From the IMG/VR virus record IMGVR_UViG_3300011339_000564, positions 14,318 through 78,317 of that record: 64,000 nucleotides of DNA, one strand, 5' to 3'. A program made the position numbers and the translations under genes. The notes under the pieces were generated by a model that saw only the letters and a program-made list of their open reading frames with translations, was not told the DNA's origin and ran no database searches. Numbering within the stretch: position 1 is the first letter of the stretch; every line of letters starts with the position of its first letter. Origin of the DNA: a virus. Its lineage: Duplodnaviria > Heunggongvirae > Uroviricota > Caudoviricetes. This document shows, piece by piece, positions 445-60,956 of this stretch.

Positions 445-473
445 TTGACAATTTTAATTGTATAGTATATAAT
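445..473 (+). promoter_or_regulatory. sigma70-type promoter TTGACA-17-TATAAT; leaderless transcript predicted
   Basis: TTGACA at 445-450 and TATAAT at 468-473. The ATG at 481 lies only 7 nt after the -10 element. Confidence 0.6.
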
Positions 474-3919: not shown

Positions 3920-4631
3920 AAATATACCCGGTGTTAATTTTTATGAACATCGGGATCAGCTTTATTATAACAAATATGAATATAGAGCTAGATTTTATCT
4001 AGTGGGAGTTCGGTATACATGGTATATCAAAGATAATATTCAGGAACTAGTTGACAAATTAAATGGCCCTGCAATAGGCTACAGCTACAGTTACATAAAT
4101 GGAGAAACCAATAGAGATGAGATTAAAGAAAATATTCCTAAATTAAAGAAATTTTTACACTGGCGTAACGAAATTAAAAAGAAGAAAAATTCTACTATAA
4201 GAGTTGAGCATAATACTGTTGCGGTGTTCAGTAATGATTTACAAGAATTACACGACATTACAAATATTATTCCTGATATTGAAATAGATATCACACAAGC
4301 ACAAACATCTAATTTTGTTGGGGTTAGGTATTTTGTGCGTAAACCAAAACATAGTTATAGAGTTTATTTAAAATCTAGGCGTATTGAGGGTTCATTTGCT
4401 AAGGATTTACATGAATTGTTTAAAAAGAACAAAAAGTTGTATCCATGCAATTCGCTTAAACATTGGGCTAAGGGTAGTGCAAGCAATACTAATATGTGGA
4501 GGTATCGTTTTAGTAGTGCTACTCACTTTATTGACTATGATGATGAGAGCACCTTAAGCTATCTAGCAATATTGCACGGAGATATGCTTGGAAAACGCTA
4601 TAAATTAGAAAAACGTCCTGATCCTATCTAA
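3891..4631 (+). CDS. Hypothetical protein
   Basis: 246-aa ORF in the same-strand operon, overlapping the clpA-like 3' end. No motif recognised. Confidence 0.55.
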   Translation: MTMALLRSVENIPGVNFYEHRDQLYYNKYEYRARFYLVGVRYTWYIKDNIQELVDKLNGPAIGYSYSYINGETNRDEIKENIPKLKKFLHWRNEIKKKKNSTIRVEHNTVAVFSNDLQELHDITNIIPDIEIDITQAQTSNFVGVRYFVRKPKHSYRVYLKSRRIEGSFAKDLHELFKKNKKLYPCNSLKHWAKGSASNTNMWRYRFSSATHFIDYDDESTLSYLAILHGDMLGKRYKLEKRPDPI

Positions 4632-4633
4632 AA

Positions 4634-4642
4634 TGATAAATA
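4634..4642 (+). promoter_or_regulatory. TGATAAATA motif (candidate T4-late-type promoter element)
   Basis: Exact 9-mer in the intergenic region 25 nt upstream of the ATG at 4667. T4 late promoters have the consensus TATAAATA. Confidence 0.3.
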
Positions 4643-4666
4643 CTCTAATAAAATGGAGTATTTACC

Positions 4667-4831
4667 ATGGCAAAGATTGTCGAAGATGTATTAGTCATCA
4701 AATTCAGTAAAATCGTTAAGGACAGCGAAGAAGGTTCTCCTATCGCTGGTTCTGATGTTCAAGCCGCATTAGAGCAAGTAGCACAGGAACTAGTTGGTTC
4801 GGGTGTTGTTGTTGAGGTTGTTCAAGCATGA
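4667..4831 (+). CDS. Small hypothetical protein (54 aa, below the track cutoff)
   Basis: ATG at 4667 preceded by GGAG. Translation MAKIVEDVLVIKFSKIV...VVEVVQA. The stop overlaps the ATG at 4828 (ATGA). Confidence 0.45.
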   Translation: MAKIVEDVLVIKFSKIVKDSEEGSPIAGSDVQAALEQVAQELVGSGVVVEVVQA

Positions 4832-5202
4832 GCCAAACTACAACATTAATACTGTTGCCGCAAACTACATACCAGAATCCAGGTAACGGAGCACCTTACA
4901 CAGTTGTAGGGAACGCTCAACCAGCCGCTGCCTACTATCTAGGTAACAGAGACTTGCAAACAGTTAATCTTAGTTTAACTAACATGACAGGTAATATTGT
5001 AATTCAAGCTACACTATCAAATCCAGCAACACTTGATAGTCAATGGTTTGATGTATATGAATTAGATGCAAATGCTAATTCATCCGGCGATAACTCAAAC
5101 GCACAAACATATACAAATATAACAGGTAACTTTGTTTATATGAGAGCAAAGATTGTAGACTTCCAAGCTGGAGGCGTTAATTTTGTTAAGCTAAGTTATT
5201 AA
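4828..5202 (+). CDS. Hypothetical protein (possible virion protein)
   Basis: 124-aa ORF, translationally coupled. Rich in Asn/Thr/Gln with a beta-rich appearance. Confidence 0.55.
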   Translation: MSQTTTLILLPQTTYQNPGNGAPYTVVGNAQPAAAYYLGNRDLQTVNLSLTNMTGNIVIQATLSNPATLDSQWFDVYELDANANSSGDNSNAQTYTNITGNFVYMRAKIVDFQAGGVNFVKLSY

Positions 5203-5203
5203 T

Positions 5204-6487
5204 ATGAAACAAATTGTCATTATGCCGGGAGGCTTTCATCCATTTCATGCAGGGCACGCCGCACTATATCAAAGTGCAGTGAAAGCATTTCCGAGTGCAG
5301 AAGTATATGTTGCCGCTACCAATGACACAAAAACAAGACCTTTCCCCTTTAATATCAAAGAAAAACTAGCAAAACTTGCTGGCGTAGCTCCTGGACATTT
5401 TGTACAAGTTAAAAGTCCTTTTAAAGCAGAAGAAATCACAAGTCAATATAATCCAGAAGAAGATGTATTAATTTTTGTGCGTAGTGAAAAAGATAGAACA
5501 GAACAACCTAAACCAGGTGGCACAAAGAAAGATGGTACACCTGCTTACTTTCAACCATGGACCGGTAAGAATTTACAGCCATTCAGTAAACATGCTTACA
5601 TTGCTTACTTACCAACTGTAGAGTTTGGACCTGGAATTCAGAGTGCGACTGAGATTCGCAACATGTGGCCTAAACTAAACGATAAGCGCAAGACTGCATT
5701 GGTTATGAGTTTATATCCGATAACACAGACAAATCCTAAACTTGCCGCTAACGTTGTTAAGATGTTAGATATAGGCATGGGTGAACGACAAGGTGTGGCG
5801 GAGGATAAAGAATCCGATCCAGTCACAAGTGCTGTATTAAATTTCTATAAGCCAGTAATAAATGATATCCACAAAGAAAAACTACCAGACTATGTTGACC
5901 AAGCTCGTGGATTGTTACAGAAAACAAATGATCCTGATATTCGTAGTAAATTAGTTGATATCTTTAAAAAGGGTAAAGAAAATCCATATATTCAAGGTGG
6001 CATTGTTACTACCGTTGGTGCAGTATTAGCCGGTGGTATATTAACTACAGCACAGAAGATGGGACTAAGCCCTGCACAAACTAACTTAGCATTACAAGCA
6101 ATATTGAATACAGTTATTCCTACAGTTGTTTCACGTATCAATGGTAAAAACTGGAGTGATACAATTAAGTATACATTAGCAAGTGCAGGTATAGGTACAG
6201 GTATTGCCGGCGCAAGTTTAGTAGAAAACGATCCTTGGGGAGATCAAGGTAACTTTGCAGGTGATCGACACGTTGATATTGGTGGAATTTTTACTAGACC
6301 TAAATTAGGTGTAGGTGATATGGTTAAAGTAAATGCAGGTCATTTCAAAGGCATCGGAGAGATATCAGAAATTAAAGGTGACCGTGCAGAAGTTTGGATG
6401 GACAGCTATGCTAAATCCTTCATGTTTGATTTATCTGACCTAGTAAAGTATATACCCGAATCCATAGATTACTTAGAAGAAAAATAA
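5204..6487 (+). CDS. HxGH nucleotidyltransferase domain fused to a Gly/Ala-rich hydrophobic region and a KOW-like C-terminus
   Basis: N-terminal MPGGFHPFHAGH (cytidylyl/adenylyltransferase HxGH signature), a central QGVAED motif, hydrophobic G/A-rich segments, and C-terminal VGDMVKVNAGHFKGIGEISEIKGDRAEV. Confidence 0.6.
   Translation: MKQIVIMPGGFHPFHAGHAALYQSAVKAFPSAEVYVAATNDTKTRPFPFNIKEKLAKLAGVAPGHFVQVKSPFKAEEITSQYNPEEDVLIFVRSEKDRTEQPKPGGTKKDGTPAYFQPWTGKNLQPFSKHAYIAYLPTVEFGPGIQSATEIRNMWPKLNDKRKTALVMSLYPITQTNPKLAANVVKMLDIGMGERQGVAEDKESDPVTSAVLNFYKPVINDIHKEKLPDYVDQARGLLQKTNDPDIRSKLVDIFKKGKENPYIQGGIVTTVGAVLAGGILTTAQKMGLSPAQTNLALQAILNTVIPTVVSRINGKNWSDTIKYTLASAGIGTGIAGASLVENDPWGDQGNFAGDRHVDIGGIFTRPKLGVGDMVKVNAGHFKGIGEISEIKGDRAEVWMDSYAKSFMFDLSDLVKYIPESIDYLEEK
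5789..5805 (+). repeat. Copy of the dispersed GC-rich motif CAAGGTGTGGCGGA(G/A)G (encodes QGVAE)
   Basis: CAAGGTGTGGCGGAGGA; one of six copies in the window. Confidence 0.8.
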
Positions 6488-6538
6488 TTTGACCCCCTCG
6501 ATAGAGTGTAAATATCTTTATCTTAACAAGAGGACCAA

Positions 6539-7435
6539 ATGGCAACTAAGAAAACCAAAAAAACTGAAGAAAAAACTGTACCCGTAGAAAAGGTACAGGA
6601 AATCGCTGAACAAGCGGCACAAGAACAGCAACAAGCCCCGCAACAGGGTCAAGTTCAAGTTAATGTTGACTTTCTAAAAACTACCCGTGTGCACATTGCT
6701 ATGCCATGTTACGGTGGTATGTTGACAGAATCAACATTTATGTCATTCATCAAGTGGGCTAACACAGCCCGTCAACTTGGTATTGACTGGACATTAGAAA
6801 CAATGGTTAACGAATCATTGATTAGCCGAGCACGTAATACACTAACTGCAAAGTTCTTGGACATGCCAGACGCTACTCACTTGTTCTTTGTTGACGCTGA
6901 CATTGGCTGGGAACCCTGGCATCTATTAGTTCTATTGAACCGTGATGTTGATGTTATTGGTGGACTATATCCAATGAAGACTATGCCTATTAAATGGGTA
7001 GTTAATGGTTTTGAAGGTGCAGAAGAAGGCACTGATGGCCTACAGGAAGTATCTAAAGCAGGTACCGGTTTCTTACTAATGAAGAAGCATGTATTTGACA
7101 AATTGAAGTCTCATCCTGCAGTTAAGCAGTATAAGAACGACATTGGTTTAGATCCAAGATTTGACCAACACTTAAAGACTTACTTTGATACAGCAGTTCG
7201 TCAGAATCGTTACTACAGTGAAGACTGGACATTCTGTGAAAACTGGCGTGATATAGGTGGTAAGATTTGGGTTGACAAGCGTGTACTATTACGTCACAGC
7301 GGCTCATATGTTTTCTGCCAAGAGAACCAAGAACACTTGATGAAGACTATTGGACCCATGTACGTAGACCAATTGACTCAACAAGGTATTAAGCTAGTTG
7401 ACAAAGACGGCAACGAAGCTAAAATCAACAAATAA
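6539..7435 (+). CDS. GT-A fold (GT2-like) glycosyltransferase, putative
   Basis: IAMPCYGG..., SRARN, a FFVDADIGW DxD-like motif, and YSEDWTFCENW...HSG. Confidence 0.5.
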   Translation: MATKKTKKTEEKTVPVEKVQEIAEQAAQEQQQAPQQGQVQVNVDFLKTTRVHIAMPCYGGMLTESTFMSFIKWANTARQLGIDWTLETMVNESLISRARNTLTAKFLDMPDATHLFFVDADIGWEPWHLLVLLNRDVDVIGGLYPMKTMPIKWVVNGFEGAEEGTDGLQEVSKAGTGFLLMKKHVFDKLKSHPAVKQYKNDIGLDPRFDQHLKTYFDTAVRQNRYYSEDWTFCENWRDIGGKIWVDKRVLLRHSGSYVFCQENQEHLMKTIGPMYVDQLTQQGIKLVDKDGNEAKINK

Positions 7436-13804: not shown

Positions 13805-14245
13805 ATGTTATCAGATAATCTAAAAGTACTTTTAGCTAGTACACAAAGTTTTGCTATTAAAACACAAAACTTTCATTGGAATGTTGAGGGGAGTAATTTT
13901 CCACAGTATCATGCATTTTTTGATACGTTATACGGTGATGTAAGTGCTACTATCGATCCTATCGCTGAATATATCAGAATATTAGGTGCTTACACACCCG
14001 GCAGTTTACAACGTTATGCTGAACTAAGTATCATTCAAGACCAAATCAAAATCCCACGTGCTCAACTAATGTTTGCTGAATCACTACAAGATTGTGAAAA
14101 AATGAGTGAATTAGTCGTTGCTATGTTTGACGAAGCAACAAACGAACGTCAGCAAGGCATTGCTAATTACATGGCTGAACTACAAGACCTATACGGTAAG
14201 AAAGCATGGTTCATTCGTTCTACATTGAAAACAGAACGTGAGTAA
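13805..14245 (+). CDS. dps: Dps-family ferritin-like DNA-protection protein
   Basis: KTQNFHWNVEGSNFPQYHAFFDTLY...IDPIAEYIRILG matches the Dps signature (fHWnv.G..F...H..f...y...D.iAEri..lG). Confidence 0.8.
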   Translation: MLSDNLKVLLASTQSFAIKTQNFHWNVEGSNFPQYHAFFDTLYGDVSATIDPIAEYIRILGAYTPGSLQRYAELSIIQDQIKIPRAQLMFAESLQDCEKMSELVVAMFDEATNERQQGIANYMAELQDLYGKKAWFIRSTLKTERE

Positions 14246-15515
14246 ATTAGAATTTACCCAGAAAGAATGGGAAAAGATAGAAAATAACGGGACTTATTGT
14301 CCCGGTTTATTTAACAGCAAATACATAGAAACTGACGGTGGACTGAGAGCATGTTGTGTTCAAGATTTAAAAGGTGAACATTATACAAATACAGAATCCT
14401 ATAACACCACTTCGTTAAAACAAGCCAGACAAAATTCATTATCAGGGATTAAAGATTCCAGTTGCGCTAGATGTTGGGAAAATGAATCATTAAACACCAG
14501 ATCATATAGACAAGGTCTAGTAGAGTCTGCTATTCACTGGAAAAGTAAAATCAAAGATAATATAAATGTTGACTATTCCATCACAGAACCCACCATAGAC
14601 TACTTAGACATTAGATTTGATAATATCTGTAATTTAAGATGTAGATATTGCAGTACTATTTTTAGTTCTAGTTGGAGACACGAAACTGAGTTACTAGAAA
14701 AAGAATTACCAATATTTAAATATATAAAAAGAAGATCAGTAGATACAAAAATATTGAATAGTGTAACCGATATTGACACGATATTAGCTGACCTTAGAAC
14801 AGTTAAAAAAATATTTTTTGCGGGTGGCGAGCCATTAGTAAACGATAAACATTATGAAGTGTTAGAATATCTAATAGATAATAATAGAACCAACATTGAA
14901 ATAACGTATAATACTAATTTTACAAACATTAAAAAAGTTATTCCTTATTGGAAAAAGTTTTCAAACATACACGTGGGTGCAAGTTTAGATGCAAATTATA
15001 AAAGAGGAGAATACATTCGTAAAAATCTCGTATGGGACCAGATTGTAGAAAATAGAAAATTAATGATTGCCGAAGTTCCTCATGTTCAATTTGAAATAAA
15101 TGCGTCAATGAGTATATTGAATGCGTATAATGTAGTAGATTTTCATAAAGAATGGATTAATGATAAATTAATTGGACCTTTTGATTTAACTGCATGGAAT
15201 TTTGTATCTAAACCTGAACATTATGATATTAGGAATTTACCTGACCATCATAAGATTAAATTAAAAGAAATATATCAAACTCATATTGATTGGTTAAACT
15301 CCCTCACATCAGGCAATGATATTAAGTTTAAAAGTAAAAATGATTCTAGTTTTGCTATTCAATCATATCAAGGTATAATTAATAGGTTAAATTTAAGTAG
15401 AAATTCATCTTTTGACAAATTTTGGGAATTTGACAAATGGTTAGATAATAATAGAGATGAAAACTTTTTTGATGTGTTTCCTGAGTATGAGGACTTTGCT
15501 AGATATTTTAGCTAA
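14238..15515 (+). CDS. Radical SAM enzyme with an N-terminal Cys-rich (SPASM/twitch-like) segment
   Basis: CNLRCRYC is a CxxxCxxC motif. An N-terminal YCPGLFNSKYIETDGGLRACC...SCARCW resembles a SPASM-type auxiliary cluster motif. GTG start overlapping the dps stop. Confidence 0.7.
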   Translation: MSKLEFTQKEWEKIENNGTYCPGLFNSKYIETDGGLRACCVQDLKGEHYTNTESYNTTSLKQARQNSLSGIKDSSCARCWENESLNTRSYRQGLVESAIHWKSKIKDNINVDYSITEPTIDYLDIRFDNICNLRCRYCSTIFSSSWRHETELLEKELPIFKYIKRRSVDTKILNSVTDIDTILADLRTVKKIFFAGGEPLVNDKHYEVLEYLIDNNRTNIEITYNTNFTNIKKVIPYWKKFSNIHVGASLDANYKRGEYIRKNLVWDQIVENRKLMIAEVPHVQFEINASMSILNAYNVVDFHKEWINDKLIGPFDLTAWNFVSKPEHYDIRNLPDHHKIKLKEIYQTHIDWLNSLTSGNDIKFKSKNDSSFAIQSYQGIINRLNLSRNSSFDKFWEFDKWLDNNRDENFFDVFPEYEDFARYFS

Positions 15516-24191: not shown

Positions 24192-24220
24192 TTGACATTT
24201 GCAATAAATGCCATTATAAT
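24192..24220 (+). promoter_or_regulatory. sigma70-type promoter TTGACA-17-TATAAT
   Basis: TTGACA at 24192-24197 and TATAAT at 24215-24220, upstream of the ATG at 24265. Confidence 0.6.
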
Positions 24221-37469: not shown

Positions 37470-37667
37470 ATGAACAAAAAAATTACAGAACTATGGGAAC
37501 AGGCCGCTCAACGAGATGACTTACTAGACGAAAAACGGTATGAGCATTTTGCTGAATTATTAATTAGAGATTGTGCAAAACAAGTTAATCATCTGGCTAA
37601 ACAAGGTGGCGGAACTTGGGGCGAAGTCATTCTAGAAAACTACAATATAAGTGTATATAAAAAATGA
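37470..37667 (+). CDS. Member of the small 'FAELIVREC' paralog family
   Basis: MNKKITELWEQAA...HFAELLIRDCAKQV. Divergent C-terminus. Confidence 0.55.
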   Translation: MNKKITELWEQAAQRDDLLDEKRYEHFAELLIRDCAKQVNHLAKQGGGTWGEVILENYNISVYKK

Positions 37668-38512
37668 GTCATTTAAAAGTATCAGAATTATTTTACAGTA
37701 TCCAGGGAGAAGGTCGCTATATGGGAGTGCCAAGTATTTTCCTAAGAACATATGGATGCAATTTTACATGCGGTGGCTTCGGTATGCCTAAGGGAGAAAT
37801 GAGTAATGAGAGAGATGTTATCGCAATTAAAGCAGAAGATTATACAGATTATAAATCCTTACCACTTGTCAGTACTGGATGTGATAGTTACGCATCTTGG
37901 GACCCTCGCTTTAAACATCTTAGTCCTGTTATCTCTACCGATTCTATTGCTGACAGTATTATGGATATACTTCCTCACAAGCGTTGGATGGATGAACATC
38001 TTGTTATTACAGGTGGTGAACCTTTGCTTGGATGGCAAAGAGCGTATCCAGACTTACTTTCAAACGAGAAAATGAGAGCATTGAAAGAGATTACATTTGA
38101 AACTAATGGCACACAAGAACTAAGTAAAGACCTTACTAACTATCTTCATCAATGGAAGATCAGCCGTGAAAATAACGCACTTACATTCAGTGTGAGTCCT
38201 AAACTTAGTATCAGCGGTGAGAAGTGGGAAGAAGCAATATGTCCACAAGTTGTTCGTCAATATGAAAGTGTTGGCTTTGTATATCTTAAATTTGTTATTG
38301 CTACTAAAGAAGATGCGATTGAGGCAGATAAAGCAGTTAAAGAATTTCGTACAGCTGGATTCAGAGGTCCAATATACTTCATGCCATGCGGTGGTGTAGA
38401 AAGTATCTATAATTTAAATGCTAGAAATGTTGCTATTGAAGCAATGAATCGTGGCTATCGCTATAGTGATAGATTACAGGTGCCTCTATTTAAAAATGAA
38501 TGGGGGACATAA
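37664..38512 (+). CDS. queE: 7-carboxy-7-deazaguanine synthase (QueE, radical SAM) with atypical Cys spacing
   Basis: ELFYSIQGEGRYMGVPSIFLRTYGCNFTC is the QueE N-terminal signature. The third Cys of CxxxCxxC is missing locally, and the next Cys (GCDSYASWDP) lies 36 residues later. VITGGEPLL. Confidence 0.75.
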   Translation: MSHLKVSELFYSIQGEGRYMGVPSIFLRTYGCNFTCGGFGMPKGEMSNERDVIAIKAEDYTDYKSLPLVSTGCDSYASWDPRFKHLSPVISTDSIADSIMDILPHKRWMDEHLVITGGEPLLGWQRAYPDLLSNEKMRALKEITFETNGTQELSKDLTNYLHQWKISRENNALTFSVSPKLSISGEKWEEAICPQVVRQYESVGFVYLKFVIATKEDAIEADKAVKEFRTAGFRGPIYFMPCGGVESIYNLNARNVAIEAMNRGYRYSDRLQVPLFKNEWGT

Positions 38513-42444: not shown

Positions 42445-42623
42445 TTCTTGCGACCCCTAAACCCTACTGGCATCTGCAAATCATTAACGGGAAACATTGC
42501 TTTGAACCACTCATCAGTACCAGGCTTAGCAGTAATTTTGCTACGGTCTATAGGCACAGAAGATGTAGGTTTTCCTCTATGGTCGGTAACTCCTGCAAGT
42601 CTTTTAAGTTGATCTATGTTCAT
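42441..42623 (-). CDS. Small hypothetical protein
   Basis: 60 aa, MNIDQLKRLAGV..., overlap-coupled within the minus-strand operon. Confidence 0.5.
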   Translation of the reverse strand: MNIDQLKRLAGVTDHRGKPTSSVPIDRSKITAKPGTDEWFKAMFPVNDLQMPVGFRGRKK

Positions 42624-43174
42624 AGACTCTTACCCCAGCGTGTGTTAATCACATTCCAGTTGATAATCTTCCACTGTTCAGCCAAATACTTTTTCTTATC
42701 AGCACCGTAGTCTAATATCCACGCATGTTCCCACCAATCAACTAATAACAATATATCATTGCGTACTTCATGGTTCTTAATTGTTTTAATTTTACCATCA
42801 GTTGCTAAATATACCCACCCACTACCTTGTATCTTCATTGCTTCAGTTTCAAACTGTGACTTCATATTATCGTATGAGCCAAAATGTTTGTTAATAAAGC
42901 CCATCATGGGGCCGTTTGGATTGTTTTTATTTCTTACTTCACGGAACTGAGGGAACAATGTATTATGTAAGAATGCACCTGCATAGTTAAATTCTTTATC
43001 TCCGATATCTTTGTTATATCTTTCAGCATAGCCATGTGCTAACTTGCCATAGTGTAAGTCTATAGTGTCTACCGACAAAACCGGACTTAGTTCTTTTGGC
43101 TCAAAATTAAGCTGAATGATTTCTATATCTTGAGGTTTTGACTTATCCTCAAGTAACTGAATTAAATCACGCAT
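42620..43174 (-). CDS. sodB: Fe/Mn superoxide dismutase
   Basis: DTIDLHYGKLAHGY, FLHNTLF, FGSYDNMKSQF, GSGWVYL, LLLVDWWEHAWILDY and INWNVI align with SodB blocks. All four metal ligands are present. Confidence 0.8.
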   Translation of the reverse strand: MRDLIQLLEDKSKPQDIEIIQLNFEPKELSPVLSVDTIDLHYGKLAHGYAERYNKDIGDKEFNYAGAFLHNTLFPQFREVRNKNNPNGPMMGFINKHFGSYDNMKSQFETEAMKIQGSGWVYLATDGKIKTIKNHEVRNDILLLVDWWEHAWILDYGADKKKYLAEQWKIINWNVINTRWGKSL

Positions 43175-47191: not shown

Positions 47192-47220
47192 TTGACATAT
47201 ATTCCATTTAACTGTATAAT
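47192..47220 (+). promoter_or_regulatory. sigma70-type promoter TTGACA-17-TGtTATAAT
   Basis: TTGACA at 47192-47197 and TATAAT at 47215-47220. Confidence 0.6.
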
Positions 47221-48440: not shown

Positions 48441-48859
48441 AATGGTTCTATGTTATTAAAACAAGTCACAATGACACACTAGGATTTGGAATTACTATTC
48501 ATTTGTCTAAACGATTAGTTGATGGTTATTGTAATCCTAGTGCGGCAAAACAACAATTTTCAAAATTGTATTATGGAGAAAATCTCCATATCAATCAATT
48601 AGAAAAATATATCAAACAGGTATATAGTAATAAACGATTAAACTTTACTAACACACGTACCCGTAAATTAGAATGGATAGATCCAAAATATGACATTTCA
48701 ATTGAGGATTTGATTGATACTGTTGAGGATCGTATTTTGGGCTACCCATTACCTATCAAACGTATCAGGGATAAATTCTTACCATACACCCTTGATAATC
48801 CGGATATCTTTAAAACAATCAATGAGAATCCTGATTTGTTTTTGGAACAACTCGGTTGA
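48437..48859 (+). CDS. Hypothetical protein (weak GIY-YIG-like N-terminus)
   Basis: WFYVIKTSHNDTLGFGITIHLSKRL is loosely similar to GIY...YIGxT...R. Not decisive. Confidence 0.3.
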   Translation: MKWFYVIKTSHNDTLGFGITIHLSKRLVDGYCNPSAAKQQFSKLYYGENLHINQLEKYIKQVYSNKRLNFTNTRTRKLEWIDPKYDISIEDLIDTVEDRILGYPLPIKRIRDKFLPYTLDNPDIFKTINENPDLFLEQLG

Positions 48860-48884
48860 CAACATCTAAATAGTAGTATATAAT
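48856..48884 (+). promoter_or_regulatory. sigma70-type promoter TTGACA-17-TATAAT; leaderless transcript predicted
   Basis: The -35 at 48856-48861 contains the upstream stop TGA (48857-48859). The -10 is at 48879-48884 and the ATG at 48891 follows 6 nt later. Confidence 0.6.
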
Positions 48885-48890
48885 AGACAC

Positions 48891-49889
48891 ATGAAATACG
48901 CACTCATTGACACAGCAAATACATTCTTCCGTGCCCGTCACATTGCATCACGTAATAGTGATACATGGGAAAAGATCGGCATGGCCCTACACTTGACATT
49001 GGCAAGTACTAATCAAATTGTTCGCAAGTTTGGTGTGGATCACGTTGTGTTTTGTTTAGAGGGTCGTAGCTGGCGCAAAAGTTTCTACGAGCCATACAAG
49101 AAAAATCGCATTGTTGATACACTATCACAAACAGAAGCCGAGATTGAAGAAAATAAAATGTTCTGGGAGACGTATGAAGTATTTACAAATTTTTTACGTG
49201 AGAAAACTAATGTTAGTGTCCTTCGTCATGCTGAGGCTGAGGCTGATGACTTAATTGCACGTTTCATTCACTTGCATCCCGATGATGAACATTTTATTAT
49301 CAGTAGCGATAGCGACTATGTGCAATTGATTACCGAAAATGTAAAACAATATAATGGGGTAGCTAATCAACTGATTACGTTAGATGGTTACTTTGATGAC
49401 AAGGGTAAGATTGTCAAAGATAAGAAAACTAAAGAACCCAAGCTACTAGAAGATCCACAATATTTGCTATTTAAAAAATGTATGCGGGGTGATGGTACTG
49501 ACAATGTGTTTAGTGCTTATCCTGGTGTGCGTGAGAAAGGTAGCAAGAATAAAGTTGGCTTGATGGAAGCATATGCTGATAGAGAAAAACAGGGCTACCA
49601 GTGGAACAATCTACTACTTCAACGCTGGCTAGACCATAATGGAGTAGAACATCGTGTACGTGAGGATTATGAACGTAATCGTATACTAATTGATTTGACT
49701 GCACAACCTCAGGATATCAAAGACAAGGTTGATGCTAGTATCATTGAGGGTGTTCGTACAACTACTACCCCTCAAGTTGGTATTCACTTTATGCGATTCT
49801 GTGGCAAATATGAGTTGACTAAGATTAGTGAACAAGCAGAAACATATGCGAAATGGTTGAATAGTCCTTACATGGGAAGTTTAGTATGA
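48891..49889 (+). CDS. 5'-3' exonuclease / flap endonuclease (T4 RNase H-like)
   Basis: LIDTANTFFRARH, AEAEADDLIA, ISSDSDYVQL, and an H3TH-like GDGTDNV. Confidence 0.8.
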   Translation: MKYALIDTANTFFRARHIASRNSDTWEKIGMALHLTLASTNQIVRKFGVDHVVFCLEGRSWRKSFYEPYKKNRIVDTLSQTEAEIEENKMFWETYEVFTNFLREKTNVSVLRHAEAEADDLIARFIHLHPDDEHFIISSDSDYVQLITENVKQYNGVANQLITLDGYFDDKGKIVKDKKTKEPKLLEDPQYLLFKKCMRGDGTDNVFSAYPGVREKGSKNKVGLMEAYADREKQGYQWNNLLLQRWLDHNGVEHRVREDYERNRILIDLTAQPQDIKDKVDASIIEGVRTTTTPQVGIHFMRFCGKYELTKISEQAETYAKWLNSPYMGSLV

Positions 49890-50092
49890 ATGAAATAATT
49901 AAAGAACTAATGAAACATGCCGGTACTGATACTAGTGGTAAATGGATGGGTGTAGAACACGCTGAAAAGTTCACCGAATTGATTGTGCAGGAATGTGCTG
50001 ATGTTCTATTAAAGTGGAAGGGTGAACCCTTTCCATTTGATGAAGACCTTGCGGCAAGTCTAATTAAAGAACATTTCGGAGTTGGATCGTGA
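49886..50092 (+). CDS. Member of the small 'FAELIVREC...HFGVEE' paralog family
   Basis: MNEIIKELMKHAG...KFTELIVQECADV...KEHFGVGS. Confidence 0.6.
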   Translation: MNEIIKELMKHAGTDTSGKWMGVEHAEKFTELIVQECADVLLKWKGEPFPFDEDLAASLIKEHFGVGS

Positions 50093-50292
50093 ACGAACGA
50101 ATTAAACAGATTGCAGATGACTGCGGATTGTATATTGCCTACGACAATAGAGAAGTGACTAACAAAGAGTTATCATTTTTTGCCGAGACAATCGTGCGAG
50201 AATGTATGGATGTTGTTAGTAAAGCCACTGCCAGTCCAAACGGATATCAGGCTCTTATGAAACATTTCGGAGTTGATAATGTGGGCACGTGA
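50089..50292 (+). CDS. Member of the small 'FAELIVREC...HFGVEE' paralog family
   Basis: GTG start. MNERIKQIADDCG...FFAETIVRECMDV...MKHFGVDN. Confidence 0.6.
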   Translation: MNERIKQIADDCGLYIAYDNREVTNKELSFFAETIVRECMDVVSKATASPNGYQALMKHFGVDNVGT

Positions 50293-50479
50293 ACAAAGTA
50301 TACACTATCTCAAACAGTATATTCATGCCAGGAAAACAACACCATGGGTTGTGAGTATGTGTCCCAATAGTGAAGAACGTGCTAGATGTGCTATACAATA
50401 CTTAGGTGGCATGGCCGGAGATTGGTATGGTAACCGAAATGACTGTCACTACTATTATTCTCAACAGGTAAAAGAATGA
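50279..50479 (+). CDS. Hypothetical protein
   Basis: The ATG at 50279 is preferred over the TTG at 50273. 66 aa. Confidence 0.45.
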   Translation: MWAREQSIHYLKQYIHARKTTPWVVSMCPNSEERARCAIQYLGGMAGDWYGNRNDCHYYYSQQVKE

Positions 50480-50619
50480 AACTATACAAACACAGCAACG
50501 GTAAGTCAAGTCTCTTCCCCGAGCATATCCCTAAGGGTTGGGAAGTTATGTTGAAGCCAACTACATTCGAAATTGTATGGCGTAGAATTAAATCAGGCCT
50601 ACTGCATATCAAGCGTTAA
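50476..50619 (+). CDS. Small hypothetical protein (47 aa, below the track cutoff)
   Basis: ATGA overlap with the upstream stop. Translation MKLYKHSNGKSSLFPEHIPKGWEVMLKPTTFEIVWRRIKSGLLHIKR. Confidence 0.4.
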   Translation: MKLYKHSNGKSSLFPEHIPKGWEVMLKPTTFEIVWRRIKSGLLHIKR

Positions 50620-50645
50620 TGGAACATTGGAGTATTGAAGAATGA
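50619..50645 (+). pseudogene. 8-codon mini-ORF MEHWSIEE resembling the conserved family 3' end (...HFGVEE-ATGA); possible decayed remnant
   Basis: GGAACATTGGAGTATTGAAGAATGAAC versus the family consensus GAACATTTCGGAGTTGAAGAATGAA, with the same ATGA junction to the next gene (50642). Confidence 0.3.
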
Positions 50646-50869
50646 ACTACTCATTCCCTGACAAAATTATCAAAACGATTAGGAAAGATGATCCAGACTT
50701 TCATATTGTTAATGGCATCACTATGGCACCACGTGCAGGGTTTGAGATTAGTAACAAATGTCCGAGTCAATATAAATTTATGATTATAGAAGCTATTAAC
50801 AATGGTTGGCTCAAACCCATAGCATACATGAAAGATTCTGAATATATGTGGGAAAAACTAGGAGAATAA
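50642..50869 (+). CDS. Hypothetical protein
   Basis: 75-aa ORF in the coupled operon. Confidence 0.55.
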   Translation: MNYSFPDKIIKTIRKDDPDFHIVNGITMAPRAGFEISNKCPSQYKFMIIEAINNGWLKPIAYMKDSEYMWEKLGE

Positions 50870-54963: not shown

Positions 54964-55169
54964 ACACACTTAAACAACTTTTTAACAGCCTACTAGAGGC
55001 AATACAATCTATCAAAGACTACAAAGCGAGTAAAATGAAATGAATCAATGGCAACCTATGACTGACGAAGATTGGGAATGGGTTAATCATGGTACATTAC
55101 CAAAACCGGTTGACATCCCAGTCAAAACAAACTATAATTAACACACATACACTTTTTTAAGGAAATAAA

Positions 55170-56153: not shown

Positions 56154-57455
56154 ATGAAAAAATTTATACTCATACTATCTATTGTTCTATCCGGTTGTGG
56201 GGGCGGTGGTGGCACCAGTACTGGCGATAGTTCGCAGGCAGTATCAGTAAAATCAACGTGTACCCTTGCTGTAAATTCAAATACAGTTCCACAATCATAT
56301 TATGGCACTAATTCAATACCCACACCATTATCAAAATTTGATAATACTATTCTAAGAGGTATTGGTCTTAAAGATTATCATCCTAGATTTAATCTGGCAA
56401 ATACAAATTGCACTCAAGATGAACATTCCAGATTACTATATCAAAAAACACTAGACAGATTAAAACTATTAAACGTAGATTATGTTGAAGTATATCAATA
56501 TGGCCCGGTAGTTGATTTTAATGCTACTACTTGGGTAGTAGATAAATCTACATGGCAAATACCAGAAAGTGAATTGATCTGGTTTATTAAAGAGGCTAAT
56601 AGTAGAAACATTAAAGTAAATATTATTTGGCAATTATGGCCAACTGATAGTAAAGGTAATACTATAAATTCAAGTTATGATATGTCAGAAGCGGAAATGT
56701 TAAAAGTATTGCGGGGATGGCATAATATTATTGTAGATTTAGCTAAGTTTGGTGGTAGTAATGGTTTGAATATATTAACCGTACATTGGAATGCATTTCA
56801 TTTTCCAGTAACTAACAAATATAAAGAATCTGCCACCTTAGAATTTTTATCAATCATTAATGATGTGCGACAACATTTTAATGGTAAATTATTTATGGGA
56901 GCATCGCCTGTATTTTTTGATAAGAGAATTGTTGAAAAGGTCGATGGTATTATTATTCCATTAACTCCTAGTAATTGGTCTAGAAATGATGATATTAATA
57001 TATCTGTCAGTTTGTTAAAAAGCCGATATTTAGATAATATATTAGGAAAAGCATTAGAACTTTCTATGGCTACTGGATTAGATTTAAAAAGTATTCCGGT
57101 TATCTGGGATTTTAATATTCAGAGCAGAGATAAAGCATTGAGTGAAGGTTGGGTAGAAGATGGATTTTGTATTAAAGAAGGTGGCGATGGTGCCCCTGTA
57201 AGTTGGGGTAATCCTGAATGTGCCAAACAAATGAATTATATAACCGATTTTAGTATTCAAGCATTAGCTATTGAAGGTGCATTTCAGGCTATTAAAGAAC
57301 AAACATTAATTAAAACATATGGTATTAACTTTAGTACTAGTTATTGGCATACTGATACGTTAGTACCCGGGCAAGAAGGCTTTCCCAACTTGTCGCAATC
57401 TATTCGAGGAAAACCTGCTGAGAATGTAGTCAAACATTGGTTCTCCAAAAATTGA
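56154..57455 (+). CDS. Lipoprotein, possible TIM-barrel glycoside hydrolase-like
   Basis: Lipobox LSGC followed by a GGGGG linker. 433 aa. The enzymatic assignment is not supported by a clear motif. Confidence 0.6.
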   Translation: MKKFILILSIVLSGCGGGGGTSTGDSSQAVSVKSTCTLAVNSNTVPQSYYGTNSIPTPLSKFDNTILRGIGLKDYHPRFNLANTNCTQDEHSRLLYQKTLDRLKLLNVDYVEVYQYGPVVDFNATTWVVDKSTWQIPESELIWFIKEANSRNIKVNIIWQLWPTDSKGNTINSSYDMSEAEMLKVLRGWHNIIVDLAKFGGSNGLNILTVHWNAFHFPVTNKYKESATLEFLSIINDVRQHFNGKLFMGASPVFFDKRIVEKVDGIIIPLTPSNWSRNDDINISVSLLKSRYLDNILGKALELSMATGLDLKSIPVIWDFNIQSRDKALSEGWVEDGFCIKEGGDGAPVSWGNPECAKQMNYITDFSIQALAIEGAFQAIKEQTLIKTYGINFSTSYWHTDTLVPGQEGFPNLSQSIRGKPAENVVKHWFSKN

Positions 57456-57480
57456 CAATAAATGGGTATTGTGCTATAAT
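57452..57480 (+). promoter_or_regulatory. sigma70-type promoter TTGACA-17-TGcTATAAT
   Basis: The -35 at 57452-57457 contains the upstream stop TGA (57453-57455). The -10 is at 57475-57480. Confidence 0.6.
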
Positions 57481-57512
57481 AGAATCTTAAACAGTAAAGA
57501 AAAGGAAACGAA

Positions 57513-57788: not shown

Positions 57789-57817
57789 TTGACAGTAATT
57801 GGATTTGGGTATATAAT
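57789..57817 (+). promoter_or_regulatory. sigma70-type promoter TTGACA-17-TATAAT
   Basis: TTGACA at 57789-57794 and TATAAT at 57812-57817. Confidence 0.6.
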
Positions 57818-57848: not shown

Positions 57849-58115
57849 ATGGCTAAGAAAATCTCTATCAAAGTGTTTGCAGACCCCGGACATGCTTGGG
57901 CACGTTTTCCCAAAGCAAAATTGGTCAGTCTCGGTATTGCTGACAAAATTAGTACTTATAGTTACATGAATGGTTCCAATGCATTCTTGGAAGAGGACTG
58001 TGATTTGTCTGTATTGCTGGTTGCTCTCCGTAATCGTGGCTATGAGATTAAATTTAACGAAAGTCACACAAACCGTCAAAGCAAAATCCGCAATTATTTT
58101 ACCTACAAGGCTTGA
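57849..58115 (+). CDS. Hypothetical small protein (early-gene cassette 2)
   Basis: 88-aa ORF. Confidence 0.6.
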   Translation: MAKKISIKVFADPGHAWARFPKAKLVSLGIADKISTYSYMNGSNAFLEEDCDLSVLLVALRNRGYEIKFNESHTNRQSKIRNYFTYKA

Positions 58116-58140
58116 CAATAAATCACTTTGGGTATATAAT
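58112..58140 (+). promoter_or_regulatory. sigma70-type promoter TTGACA-17-TATAAT
   Basis: The -35 at 58112-58117 contains the upstream stop TGA (58113-58115). The -10 is at 58135-58140. Confidence 0.6.
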
Positions 58141-58174
58141 AGAGTCTTATTCAGTCAAACAACAGGAGTTAAAA

Positions 58175-58387: not shown

Positions 58388-59041
58388 ATGGCTCGCTATC
58401 AAAAACCCGTTCTCAATATCCCTGCTGAAAACGTCTGGGGTGCGGCATGTCAGGCACAACGCATTAACGGTGCCTATGTTAAACTGAGTGTGTTGACAGA
58501 GGCTGACAAGACAGAGAACAAATTGTCCAATCGTCAACTGGTCGAAAGTTTCATGGTTGACCCTAGCTTGATTACCGAAGAAGATATGGAGCAAGGTAAA
58601 AAAGTTCGTGCATTTTATCAGGCATTCACTTTCAAAATCTTGCAAGGCAAACGATTGAATGAATTTGACAACACCGCAATGTTGCTTGCCAATCGTGATG
58701 TTATTACTGGTAGTTATGATGTTGCGGTTATTGCTAGTTTGCCAAGTTGCTATGAGCGTGGTATGAAACGTCAAACAGCAGACCAACGTGTTAATTTTGC
58801 TAGCGGTGGATTTGTGGGTTCAGTTGGTGATAAAGTTTCAACTACTATTGAAGTATTGAAATCTGTATTCTCAATGAAATGGGGCACACACTATGTTACC
58901 GGCATCACTAGTGATGACCAAGTAGTGTTCTTTGCTTACAAAAGTGAATTACCAATTGGTAAGATATATGATATTTATGGTACTGTTAAAGCACACCGAG
59001 ATAACACTACCCAACTTAATCGTGTAAAGGTTATTGTATGA
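58388..59041 (+). CDS. Hypothetical protein
   Basis: 217-aa ORF with a GGAG RBS. Confidence 0.6.
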   Translation: MARYQKPVLNIPAENVWGAACQAQRINGAYVKLSVLTEADKTENKLSNRQLVESFMVDPSLITEEDMEQGKKVRAFYQAFTFKILQGKRLNEFDNTAMLLANRDVITGSYDVAVIASLPSCYERGMKRQTADQRVNFASGGFVGSVGDKVSTTIEVLKSVFSMKWGTHYVTGITSDDQVVFFAYKSELPIGKIYDIYGTVKAHRDNTTQLNRVKVIV

Positions 59042-59325
59042 ACGAACGAATTCGACAACTGGCTCTACAGGCTGATGAATATGCTGAACAAACTGTTCAT
59101 TATTATATGGGTCAGTTTGATGGATTGACTTGGGAAGGCAAAATCAAACAAACAAGAGATACAAAGTTCGCCGAGTTGATTGTTAGGGAATGTATTGACA
59201 AGATTACAACTTATGATTTGGTTCCAGGTCATTCAGCCAAATGGGAAGATATCTACGATATCCATACTAGGCTGCTACAAGACTTAGGTGAAGAATTGAA
59301 AGAACATTTCGGAGTTGAAGAATGA
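59038..59325 (+). CDS. Member of the small 'FAELIVREC...HFGVEE' paralog family
   Basis: MNERIRQLALQADEY...KFAELIVRECIDK...KEHFGVEE. Confidence 0.65.
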   Translation: MNERIRQLALQADEYAEQTVHYYMGQFDGLTWEGKIKQTRDTKFAELIVRECIDKITTYDLVPGHSAKWEDIYDIHTRLLQDLGEELKEHFGVEE

Positions 59326-59549
59326 ATACAGAATTGATTCAGAAATTGAAGTCACAATGTATCTTCCGTGAAATGCGTGGTACTACTGCGTTTAACAGTT
59401 ATATGGTAGATCGGTTTGATAGTGAAAAGTTTGCAGAACTGATTGTACGAGAGTGTGACCGTTATGCCCGTAGTGTATGGGAACATGGTCCATTGTTAGG
59501 TAAGGATTTGTTAATACATTTTGGAATTGAGGAGATGAGTGATGAGTAA
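59322..59549 (+). CDS. Member of the small 'FAELIVREC...HFGVEE' paralog family
   Basis: MNTELIQKLKSQC...KFAELIVRECDRY...IHFGIEE. Confidence 0.6.
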   Translation: MNTELIQKLKSQCIFREMRGTTAFNSYMVDRFDSEKFAELIVRECDRYARSVWEHGPLLGKDLLIHFGIEEMSDE

Positions 59550-59670
59550 ATTAATTATTGGTTTTATTCTTGGTATTGTTGTATCAACGGTTGGCTTTAG
59601 TGGCATCGCTAGAATGGCTGATAAAGGCGTAGACAAGGTTAAAGAAGTAACCATCGAACAAGCAAAGTGA
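59542..59670 (+). CDS. Small membrane peptide (42 aa)
   Basis: Translation MSKLIIGFILGIVVSTVGFSGIARMADKG..., overlapping the upstream 3' end. Confidence 0.4.
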   Translation: MSKLIIGFILGIVVSTVGFSGIARMADKGVDKVKEVTIEQAK

Positions 59671-59699
59671 AATTTAAACGTAAACAGGTGGAGGATAAA

Positions 59700-60122
59700 A
59701 TGGGACTAGATATGTATGCTTATGTTGCCAGCAGAAAAGGTCAGTATGATGAATTCCATGAAAAGGCTGAATGGGATGAGACTATAAAAGATTTTACCTC
59801 TCCTATCAGTAAGCCATTGGAGATTGCTTATTGGCGTAAGCATCCTAACTTGCATGGTTGGATGGAACAACTATGGGAACGCAAAGGCAAACCCGGTGCA
59901 GGCCCTAAAGAAATATTCAATGGCATTGAATTGGAACTGACATGGGATGATTTGGATGAGCTTGAACGAGCTATTCTCCGTGGTCAACTCCCGGATACTC
60001 AAGGTTTCTTTTTTGGTAAACCAGCAGATAATCGTTATTATGAACAAGACCTAGAGTTTGTAGACAACGCTAAGGCGGAAGTGTTTTTGGGATTGAAAGT
60101 ATTTTACAACAGTAGTTGGTAA
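59700..60122 (+). CDS. Hypothetical protein
   Basis: Start at the ATG at 59700 behind GGTGGAGG (the track GTG at 59667 is less likely). Translation MGLDMYAYVASRKG...YWRKHPNLHGWM. Confidence 0.55.
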   Translation: MGLDMYAYVASRKGQYDEFHEKAEWDETIKDFTSPISKPLEIAYWRKHPNLHGWMEQLWERKGKPGAGPKEIFNGIELELTWDDLDELERAILRGQLPDTQGFFFGKPADNRYYEQDLEFVDNAKAEVFLGLKVFYNSSW

Positions 60123-60229
60123 TGTATATTACAAATAAATATCATTCAATTAAGTTGCCATATAGTGAAGATTTATTAGAATGGCTGATTGAAACATATC
60201 CTAAATCAGAATATAGAGTAGTAAAATGA
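60122..60229 (+). CDS. Very small ORF (35 aa), uncertain
   Basis: TAATG and ATGA overlaps link it to both neighbouring genes. Translation MYITNKYHSIKLPYSEDLLEWLIETYPKSEYRVVK. Confidence 0.3.
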   Translation: MYITNKYHSIKLPYSEDLLEWLIETYPKSEYRVVK

Positions 60230-60564
60230 ACGAAAATATTAAAGCAGGTGGAGACATTCACGCAGGTGATGGTGGTTACTCTATTGGCACCAAAGAAAAA
60301 TATGATGAATTTGTGAAGAATAGGAATCGTATGAACGACCGAATTCGACAACTTATAGAGCAAGCTACGGATACTATAGAAATTGTTAATCCAGATACTG
60401 GAATCACTCATTATCGTGAGTTTTTTGATAAGGAAAAATTTGCCGAGTTGATTGTGTGGGAATGTATGGAACAGGTTTGGTATAGTCGTGAAGATAGTAT
60501 CAACGGCAATGTTTCCGAAGTTATCAAAGACAGGATTAAGAAACATTTCGGAGTTGAAGAATGA
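60226..60564 (+). CDS. Member of the small 'FAELIVREC...HFGVEE' paralog family (N-terminally extended)
   Basis: ...MNDRIRQLIEQATD...KFAELIVWECMEQ...KKHFGVEE. Confidence 0.6.
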   Translation: MNENIKAGGDIHAGDGGYSIGTKEKYDEFVKNRNRMNDRIRQLIEQATDTIEIVNPDTGITHYREFFDKEKFAELIVWECMEQVWYSREDSINGNVSEVIKDRIKKHFGVEE

Positions 60565-60956
60565 ACTTAACAAAATACAGTAAAAACAAAATGTTGCAAA
60601 CATTTGCACGTTGGGAAGTTCCCAAAGAGTTTGTTGAACCTTTCTATAACTATCTAGTCTGGGGATTTAGGCCAGGTAGTTGTTTTGAAGCAATACTGGC
60701 TAATGATTTTGCCAAGGCAATCTCACGTAGTCATCCTAGTAATACTATAGAAGCGTACAAAGCCTTGGTAGGTTGGATTGACAGCACAGTACCGAAAGTA
60801 GCACGTGGCAGTCATAAACAGATTCTGCTTTGGTCTAGTATTGATGAAGAACAACGTAGAAGTATTTTAGAAGAACATCGCTTGATCTTCACCAGCAAGG
60901 AAGAAGTTATGTTGATTCTAAAAGATGAACGTATAGTTGAACCACACTTATATTAA
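60561..60956 (+). CDS. Hypothetical protein
   Basis: 131-aa ORF with ATGA overlap. Confidence 0.55.
   Translation: MNLTKYSKNKMLQTFARWEVPKEFVEPFYNYLVWGFRPGSCFEAILANDFAKAISRSHPSNTIEAYKALVGWIDSTVPKVARGSHKQILLWSSIDEEQRRSILEEHRLIFTSKEEVMLILKDERIVEPHLY

Follow-up and report, generated by a model that had tools for sequence, protein, structure and literature searches.

A cassette-shuffling family of small phage proteins whose conserved 3' end probably doubles as the ribosome-binding site of the next gene

Why should a family of small phage proteins keep not only the residues but also the codons of its last positions, and what does this have to do with the gene that follows? The question is raised by a 64,000-nucleotide (nt) stretch of DNA from a virus of the Caudoviricetes (IMG/VR record IMGVR_UViG_3300011339_000564, positions 14,318 to 78,317; this whole stretch is called the window below), in which an earlier reading made without database searches (the sequence-only reading) had noticed six small related open reading frames (ORFs) and had proposed that their 3' end carries the ribosome-binding site (RBS) of the downstream gene, the family being either a mobile leader cassette or the product of a recombination hotspot at that junction. 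The comparisons described here make it rather probable that the six ORFs belong to a plug-compatible, cassette-shuffling family in which the 3' end is a translated RBS.

All six ORFs were found on the plus strand at the positions given in Table 1, and hidden Markov models (HMMs) searched against the 1,657 six-frame ORFs of the window united them in one family: a model built from the other five recovered each copy with E = 6.7e-6 to 1.6e-13, the best unrelated window ORF in these leave-one-out searches having E >= 0.13, and a model of all six matched only these six, with no seventh copy in the window. Invariant in their alignment are M1, N2, I5, the F and E of the FAEL motif, and the Cys. The peptide pattern by which the ORFs had been grouped does not hold for every copy, as copy 1 (37470) has no HFGV and ends in NISVYKK instead, the Arg of the REC motif is Gln in copy 2 (49886) and Trp in the copy of the 60226 ORF, and the family unit of that ORF begins at an internal ATG at 60331 (ATGAACGACCGAATT, which matches the 5' anchor described below). 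The terminal DNA block that had been thought common to all copies was exact in two of them only, where the 18-mer TTCGGAGTTGAAGAATGA stands at 59308-59325 and 60547-60564 (with up to three mismatches allowed, chance would give about 0.2 matches); it is partial in the 49886 copy (GGAGTTGGATCGTGA, with a GTG start) and the 50089 copy (GGAGTTGATAATG), while the 59322 copy has only a degenerate form of it and the 37470 copy none.

The conservation of this junction was assessed in 179 unique members from 57 IMG/VR loci, 133 of which carry the motif FG[VI]. The 3' anchor reads (K/E)HFGVEE and corresponds to the DNA CATTTCGGAGTTGAAGAATGA. Its Gly codon is GGA in 125 of the 133 homologues (94%) and, under a stricter motif, in 107/113, compared with 23% when the ORFs of these loci are taken as background, while the Val codon is GTT in 98/107 against a background of 34%; the junction is thus conserved beyond what the peptide needs. 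The family stop is TGA in 111/133 homologues and overlaps the next start as ATGA in 105/133 and as GTGA or TTGA in 5, the overlaps within the window being 59325/59322 and 60564/60561 (ATGA) and 50092/50089 (GTGA). A start codon lies exactly 7 nt after the GGAG in 94 homologues scored directly, and in about 110/133 when TGATG and GTG variants re-read by eye are counted. This distance does not depend on the tail, for FGV may be followed by EE, E, KE, K or another sequence; relative to the GGAG, the downstream start is thus more strictly positioned than the stop of the family gene itself. Two window copies represent natural experiments: in copy 3 the tail was lengthened by DNVGT, yet the next ATG still lies 6 nt after the GGAG, and in copy 5 the change of Val to Ile destroyed the original GGAG (GGAATT), a new one being formed by the codons of the Glu pair (EE). 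Copies 3 and 5 have thus lost the canonical junction, but a GGAG is still present 6-7 nt ahead of the next start. The ATGA overlap is real as well, but ordinary by itself: in a crude gene model of the window, 4-nt overlaps occur at 24/84 same-strand junctions and overlaps of 1-20 nt at 37/84, and 4-mers resembling a Shine-Dalgarno (SD) sequence precede 48/84 starts, so that in this genome an ATGA overlap whose SD lies within the upstream gene is the usual arrangement. The unusual feature is the junction as the fixed, portable end of a mosaic family, not the overlap itself. No RNA structure beyond that of shuffled sequences was detected at the junction (z from -0.06 to +0.43) or at the middle anchor, and an unstructured junction RNA is as expected of an open initiation site. 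The proposed RBS function gains comparative support from the fixed distance between GGAG and start, under varying tails and stops, and from the re-created GGAG of the 59322 copy, and the GGAG is taken as a putative SD for initiation, or coupled re-initiation, of the downstream cistron, by analogy with coupled overlapping gene pairs with ATGA-type overlaps (review PMC12548453).

A near-identical junction (GAACATTTAGGAGGTGAAGAATGAAA) was also seen at the end of unrelated small proteins, which terminate in EHLGGEE, CFGVEK (FGVEK) or EYGVEE (YGVEE); the cases are L195 2279-2524 (Rheinheimera phage Barba1A gp028) and the downstream partners in loci L021 and L005. Such endings may mean either that unrelated genes can acquire these last codons from one another or that the codons have converged.

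Two further blocks of the genes are conserved as DNA, namely the 5' anchor MNERI (ATGAACGAACGAATT) and the middle anchor FAELIV.EC, located in helix 2 (TTCGCCGAGTTGATTGT..GAATGT). In the 5' anchor the Asn codon is AAC in 116/131 (background 44%), the Arg codon CGA in 105/116 (14%) and the Ile codon ATT in 115/134 (50%); in the middle anchor the Ala codon is GCC in 102/132 (22%), the Glu codon GAG in 101/123 (27%) and the Leu codon TTG in 110/134 (25%). Although neither of these two anchors plays a part in ribosome binding, their synonymous sites are as fixed as those of the 3' junction, and for this reason codon conservation by itself cannot be ascribed to the RBS. When copies of different contigs without a common cassette are compared, codon identity at positions with the same residue reaches 0.77-0.85 in the anchors, compared with 0.725 inside C-cassettes that are actually shared and with a saturation level of about 0.4, the latter being our estimate from background codon usage. 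In addition, 11 nt on the two sides of a 2-nt indel are common to the middle anchor (TTCGCCGAGTTGA) and the 3' anchor (TTCG--GAGTTGA), in different reading frames (59167-59183 and 59308-59325 in copy 4), a resemblance that, read from the letters, may reflect chance or a common DNA-level motif.

The homologues are visibly mosaic in the segments between the anchors. Among 427 parsed members (the same cassette being defined as >=70% identity and an unrelated one as <30%), which fall into about 239 N-cassette and about 238 C-cassette clusters, pairs with the same N-cassette had unrelated C-cassettes in 653/939, and pairs with the same C-cassette had unrelated N-cassettes in 1,459/1,927. The window copies take part in this exchange: member P0002 combines the N-half of copy 2 with the C-half of copy 4; the C-half of copy 2 recurs with other N-halves in P0114 and P0119, that of copy 3 with another N-half in P0028, and that of copy 6 with other N-halves in P0063 and P0082; and the N-half of copy 6 recurs with other C-halves in P0099 and P0072. 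Six DNA alignments between copies of different contigs displayed 90-100% identity from the middle anchor to ...GAAGAATGAA, with unrelated N-halves and downstream flanks, and the C-half of copy 6 is about 90% DNA-identical to that of L009:7985, again with N-half and flank unrelated. As the identity is bounded by the middle anchor and GAAGAATGAA, the crossovers are placed in the middle anchor and at the junction. These patterns show that N- and C-cassettes re-assort independently between phages, with apparent crossovers inside the anchors. The recombination proposed for the conserved junction is accordingly seen as DNA-level chimeras with breakpoints in the conserved blocks; the leader-cassette and recombination ideas, which the sequence-only reading had set against each other, are both largely right and act together. 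One chimera was also observed within a single contig, L044, where the N-cassettes of 4023-4244 and 4520-4750 are 91% identical and the C-cassettes unrelated, the only such case among 312 pairs. No avoidance of identical cassettes within a genome was detected, within-contig sharing being 1/312 and 0/312 versus 0.3-0.4% between contigs. A diversity-generating retroelement was considered as the source of the variation and rejected, since the cassettes differ by replacement of whole segments and in length and not by substitutions at A sites (no formal search was made).

It could be argued that the 3' block is conserved purely as SD, spacer and start, and that the mosaicism is incidental to ordinary phage recombination. 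The 7-nt spacing fixed across variable tails, the GGAG re-created in the 59322 copy and the frequency of SD-like motifs (48/84 genes) and overlapping junctions in the window are all in keeping with this account, which is nevertheless unlikely to be sufficient, as fixation is equal or stronger in the 5' and middle anchors, with background-rare codons (CGA, GCC, GAG), breakpoints are found not only at the junction but also in the middle anchor, and the GTT of Val and the spacer are fixed beyond what an SD needs.

The junction also precedes many different genes. Downstream of it stand members of the family in 41 cases and genes from outside it in about 75, the latter forming about 70 unrelated clusters, so the downstream genes vary while the junction is conserved. 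The exact 31-mer CATTTCGGAGTTGAAGAATGAACGAACGAAT, in which the 3' anchor is joined to the 5' anchor of the next copy, was detected in at least 120 viral contigs of 4-374 kb, and only 17% of the locus pairs share any other ORF of at least 120 amino acids. Differential gains were observed between close relatives. Contig L002 (IMGVR_UViG_3300047274_000088), 80-91% identical to the window at 30-40.7 kb and with an orthologue of copy 1 at 80% identity, holds a 2.2-kb block (5195-7413) between this orthologue and QueE, corresponding to window position 37667, with four extra family copies, a 31-residue hydrophobic ORF, small ORFans and an ORF with an Endonuclease VII domain (PF02945, E = 5e-22); a 50-nt duplicate of the QueE 5' end remains upstream of the block, much as if a nuclease-associated insertion had left its footprint there. 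In L019, four tandem copies stand between the orthologues of window genes 51552 and 51850, a place where the window has none, and relatives that share the exonuclease gene have differing repertoires after it. Such comparisons show whole units apparently gained or lost at junctions between close relatives. Every unit begins with ATGAAC, which supplies a TGA stop to an upstream ORF in the appropriate frame, and with this start and a GGAG-N7-ATGA end a unit should be able to enter or leave an overlapping junction without disturbing its neighbours. The notion of a mobile leader cassette stands as far as the portable junction before many unrelated genes and the insertion and deletion of whole units are concerned, but not in singling out the 3' junction, to which the conservation is not special.

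The family is a very large and unannotated one, consisting of proteins of about 60-110 amino acids from uncultured, apparently mostly freshwater phages. A profile search at 90% clustering gave at least 7,991 proteins, and an exhaustive search of 50%-identity representatives 8,863 at E <= 1e-3 and 1,646 at E <= 1e-10; the matches listed are of 65-158 amino acids, and the profile match nearly always reaches the protein C-terminus. In IMG/VR, the 57 loci, which were retrieved by the middle-anchor peptide, hold 208 members, mostly in tandem and with up to 11 per 10 kb, and the record titles of the contigs mostly indicate a freshwater origin. A search of 185,579 species genomes yielded only 12 loci, all on contigs of metagenome-assembled genomes (MAGs) named for freshwater taxa or lakes; they are probably mis-binned phage DNA, and a bacterial or prophage origin was rejected. 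The six copies had no relevant match in Pfam or PHROGs, and 104 scanned members gave no PHROG match and two isolated single-member Pfam matches only. No sequence relative was found in the PDB (best profile E = 0.09), Foldseek against the PDB returned nothing meaningful (E > 2; template-modelling score, TM, < 0.4), and Foldseek against BFVD returned only uncharacterised proteins of uncultured Caudovirales. The AlphaFold2 model of copy 4, built with 104 sequences, is a three-helix bundle with a predicted local distance difference test score (pLDDT) of 86.8 and a predicted TM score (pTM) of 0.75; the helices comprise residues 3-21, 32-57 and 67-91, with coil in the four C-terminal residues (GVEE).

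In the model, the protein is laid out as anchor, variable cassette, anchor, variable cassette and anchor on the predicted three-helix bundle, all three anchors being conserved as DNA. The 3' anchor places GGAG exactly 7 nt before the start of the next gene, a start that usually overlaps the family stop as ATGA, and the unstructured GVEE tail would largely be a translated RBS with its spacer. Exchange would proceed by ordinary homologous recombination during co-infection via anchors of 15-30 nt. Even in early operons that are tightly packed and driven by sigma-70, the insertion, deletion or re-assortment of a unit would then leave its neighbours translated. Several observations weigh against this model. 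All homologues come from metagenome assemblies, and recombination is read from patterns. Synonymous freedom in the anchors is uneven, with free variation at the third position of the Phe codons and in the codons for the Val of LIV and the Arg of REC; simple homogenisation of a tract does not explain this, and site-specific nucleotide constraints are possible. GGA is kept in 4 of about 6 homologues with no downstream start nearby, which suggests that part of its fixation is independent of use as an RBS. No homology in the searches of Pfam, PHROGs v4, the PDB and Foldseek supports any protein function, and a speculative reading of MNERIKELAE as a capsid-targeting sequence of the T4 internal-protein type was set aside. 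In cultured phages, megablast of the region and tblastn of a family member gave no match, and blastn of the junction gave chance or partial matches only, among them the non-member gp028 of Rheinheimera phage Barba and the Manatee Spring genome with the N-terminal extension described below.

The uneven synonymous freedom also bears on a different mechanism, in which a nuclease or recombinase would drive exchange or homing at a short motif such as TTCG(N0-2)GAGTTGA, in place of general homologous recombination. The motif is the one shared, in the consensus, by the middle and 3' anchors around the 2-nt indel, and the endonuclease-bearing insertion of L002 with its duplicated QueE 5' end would suit such a process. 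On the other hand, the Endonuclease VII ORF has no homologue in the other 57 loci and hence no consistent association with the family, no conserved enzyme gene was seen beside the arrays, and the resemblance between the motifs was noticed post hoc and could be chance, leaving a site-specific process rather improbable.

It is very improbable that the copies are ordinary paralogues, whose blocks would reflect peptide constraint and shared ancestry and whose variable parts would have arisen by point mutation under birth and death. The peptide is clearly under constraint, because the anchors coincide with helix segments of a fold that is predicted with confidence, and the Cys is invariant; however, anchor codon choice is 3-6 fold above background for rare codons, the cassettes are unalignable and of different length, cassettes with 90-100% DNA identity lie beside unrelated ones, and codon fixation, cassette re-assortment, DNA chimeras and anchor codon identity already contradict this explanation. 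Scarcely credible is an origin of the mosaics as assembly chimeras at shared short repeats, even with all homologues taken from short-read assemblies and a 31-mer junction common to many genomes, since the exact tract of the middle anchor is only about 17 nt, which typical assembler k-mer sizes exceed, whole genes of about 200-300 nt can be spanned by read pairs, and the same chimeric proteins occur on many independent contigs or sources (P0114 on 57, P0028 on 38).

The cassette-shuffling model can be compared with several known systems. In the promoter-early stem-loop (PeSL) cassettes of T4-type phages, conserved promoter and terminator elements allow recombination to shuffle small early genes (Arbiol et al. 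2010, PMC2839356; PMC4122927). The family resembles them in having short conserved expression signals repeated between small non-essential early genes in hyperplastic regions, in recombination between copies that leads to insertion, deletion or replacement of intervening genes in close relatives (here L002, L019 and the anchor chimeras), and in the repeated perfect sigma-70 promoters of the window. PeSLs, however, are intergenic and transcriptional, whereas the family anchors lie inside ORFs, provide translational signals (SD, start, stop) and also stand in mid-gene, so that shuffling works at the sub-gene level. The conserved blocks contain no promoter hexamers of the PeSL type, the perfect promoters of the window lying separately and elsewhere, and no stem-loop terminator of that type is present at the junction, as the z values given above indicate. 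In the gp38 adhesins of T-even phages, glycine-rich motifs (GRMs) separate hypervariable segments and exchanges take place in or near the motifs (Trojet et al. 2011, PMC3157838). Conserved motifs of a structural core alternate there with hypervariable segments, just as three anchors alternate here with two cassettes and the breakpoints fall in the anchors; gp38, in contrast, is a single-copy virion adhesin with a known receptor-binding role, and the family consists of multi-copy, tandem, early-region three-helix bundles. Neither homology to gp38 nor a role as virion adhesin was indicated, there being no Pfam or PHROG match and a context of early and replication genes, not tail fibres, and the two are related neither in sequence nor in fold. 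With coupled ATGA pairs the junction shares the co-oriented stop/start overlap, an SD inside the upstream ORF at functional distance and the unstructured RNA (PMC12548453), but in ordinary pairs the junction is specific to one pair, and here one fixed junction serves thousands of members and many unrelated next genes. By analogy, then, the family is a member of neither the PeSL nor the gp38 system but appears to work like both. The pilin genes pilE/pilS are another cassette-based variation system. So are the C-terminal cassettes of polymorphic toxins (PMC3482391), and in both of these systems conserved blocks flank variable cassettes that are exchanged by homologous recombination, as in the family. 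They differ from it in having one expressed locus and silent donors in one genome, whereas here every copy is apparently expressed and the pool is the phage population.

Table 1. Coordinates of the family copies, their partners and the perfect sigma-70 promoters in the window
Feature	Coordinates	Strand	Remarks
Family copy 1	37470..37667	+	Divergent; MNKKI and HFAELLIRDC kept; no HFGVEE and no GGAG; leave-one-out E = 6.7e-6
Family copy 2	49886..50092	+	GGAG 50078-50081, 7 nt before GTG start of copy 3 at 50089 (GTGA overlap)
Family copy 3	50089..50292	+	GTG start; extended tail HFGVDNVGT
Non-family gene 3' of copy 3	50279..50479	+	ATG 6 nt after GGAG 50269-50272, within extended tail of copy 3
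Solo junction / 8-codon mini-ORF MEHWSIEE	50619..50647 (ORF 50619-50645)	+	Start codon fused to decayed 3' anchor
Family copy 4	59038..59325	+	Canonical anchors: 5' 59038-59052, middle 59167-59183, 3' 59302-59325; GGAG 59311-59314, 7 nt before ATG 59322 (start of copy 5)
Family copy 5	59322..59549	+	HFGI (GGAATT), original GGAG lost; tail extended to EEMSDE; re-created GGAG 59531-59534, 7 nt before ATG 59542
Small hydrophobic (membrane-type) ORF	59542..59670	+	Partner 3' of copy 5, at re-created putative SD; read from sequence only
N-terminal extension module of 60226 ORF	60226..60330	+	MNENIKAGGDIHAGDGGYSIGTKEKYDEFVKNRNR; 35 residues; opening resembles 5' anchor; kept in other phages
Family copy 6 proper	60331..60564	+	5' anchor 60331-60345, middle anchor 60439-60455, 3' anchor 60541-60564; GGAG 60550-60553, 7 nt before ATG 60561 (60226 ORF to 60561)
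Non-family partner 3' of copy 6	60561..60956	+	Starts at ATGA overlap; no Pfam or PHROG match
Sigma-70 promoter	445-473	+	Perfect consensus
Sigma-70 promoter	24192-24220	+	Perfect consensus
Sigma-70 promoter	47192-47220	+	Perfect consensus
Sigma-70 promoter	48856..48884	+	Perfect consensus; heads exonuclease, copy 2, copy 3
Sigma-70 promoter	55110-55138	+	Perfect consensus
Sigma-70 promoter	57452-57480	+	Perfect consensus
Sigma-70 promoter	57789-57817	+	Perfect consensus
Sigma-70 promoter	58112..58140	+	Perfect consensus; heads gene 58388, copy 4, copy 5

The window is gene-dense, has a GC content of 37% and is coded almost entirely on the plus strand. Its genes include a B-family DNA polymerase (phrog_262), a 5'-3' exonuclease and an ATP-dependent DNA ligase about 35% identical to ligases of Bacillus-group myophages, as well as a QueE-like radical-SAM enzyme at 37664-38512 (phrog_2076, E = 5e-53) and a second radical-SAM protein at 14238-15515, the two radical-SAM genes suggesting deazaguanine chemistry; a ClpB-type AAA+ ATPase of 753 amino acids at 1658-3919 (phrog_4871, E = 1e-234) and an Fe/Mn superoxide dismutase at 42620-43174 on the minus strand were also observed. 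The eight perfect sigma-70 promoters (TTGACA-N17-TATAAT), all on the plus strand, compare with 0.06 expected in the window, and their position at the head of the operons of copies 2-3 and 4-5 makes the family genes look early and transcribed by the host RNA polymerase. Two promoter blocks, each about 65 bp long (57445-57508 and 58107-58174), have counterparts with 83-84% identity at other positions in the relatives L003 and L053 and may be PeSL-like mobile promoter cassettes.

Individual copies show further peculiarities. The stop of copy 1 overlaps the ATG of the QueE-like gene as ATGA, and its junction (37640-37667) has neither GGAG nor another obvious SD (AAGTGTATATAAAAAATGA); orthologues of copy 1 (the P0032 cluster, 208 members) end in KHFNIKIGK, a decayed 3' anchor. 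The extension module at 60226-60330 also occurs in P0003, in P0072 and in a Manatee Spring virome genome (MW202796, UOF82019.1), there fused to the remnant RIKELAEQ...FGVE, and its opening looks as if it had been inserted by recombination at the 5' anchor. The mini-ORF at 50619-50645, which had been regarded as a decayed copy retaining only the junction, is real, and its junction can be aligned to the consensus with two indels and a score of 34, compared with a maximum of 27 in 20 shuffles and with 32 for the bona fide copies 49886 and 50089; its GGAG (50629-50632) lies 9 nt before the ATG of gene 50642-50869, and it looks like the result of an internal deletion that left only start codon and 3' anchor. 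For orthologous variation at this place the contigs with gene 50642-50869, being near-identical, were uninformative.

A profile of the family would annotate a recurrent unknown block in phage contigs, which Pfam and PHROGs do not see. The family is an unusually clean natural example of sub-gene shuffling, with nucleotide anchors of 15-30 nt in coding sequence, one of which doubles as a translation signal, and it makes the minimal homology for recombination in wild phages, selection for exchangeability and the dictation of C-terminal residues by the RBS of the next gene accessible to testing. The junction design may serve as a portable coupling element for synthetic operons. As a guess, and a doubtful one, the proteins may act early and in the cytoplasm as binders, for example in host takeover or anti-defence, with the two hypervariable segments providing diversity of target specificity; if the cassettes are specificity determinants, the family would represent a large natural library of small binders on one scaffold. 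Equally tentative is the idea that the anchors are a maintained, population-level device of combinatorial diversification. Hundreds of N- and C-cassettes would then be recombined without pause on the three-helix scaffold, giving new early binders directed at the host or serving anti-defence; second-order selection for exchangeability would preserve the same anchor DNA in otherwise unrelated phages of 4-374 kb, and the ATGA/GGAG ends would act as a universal plug by which every unit could be fitted into any junction of overlapping genes. If true, this device would be a coding-sequence analogue of integron or PeSL cassettes across the whole virome.

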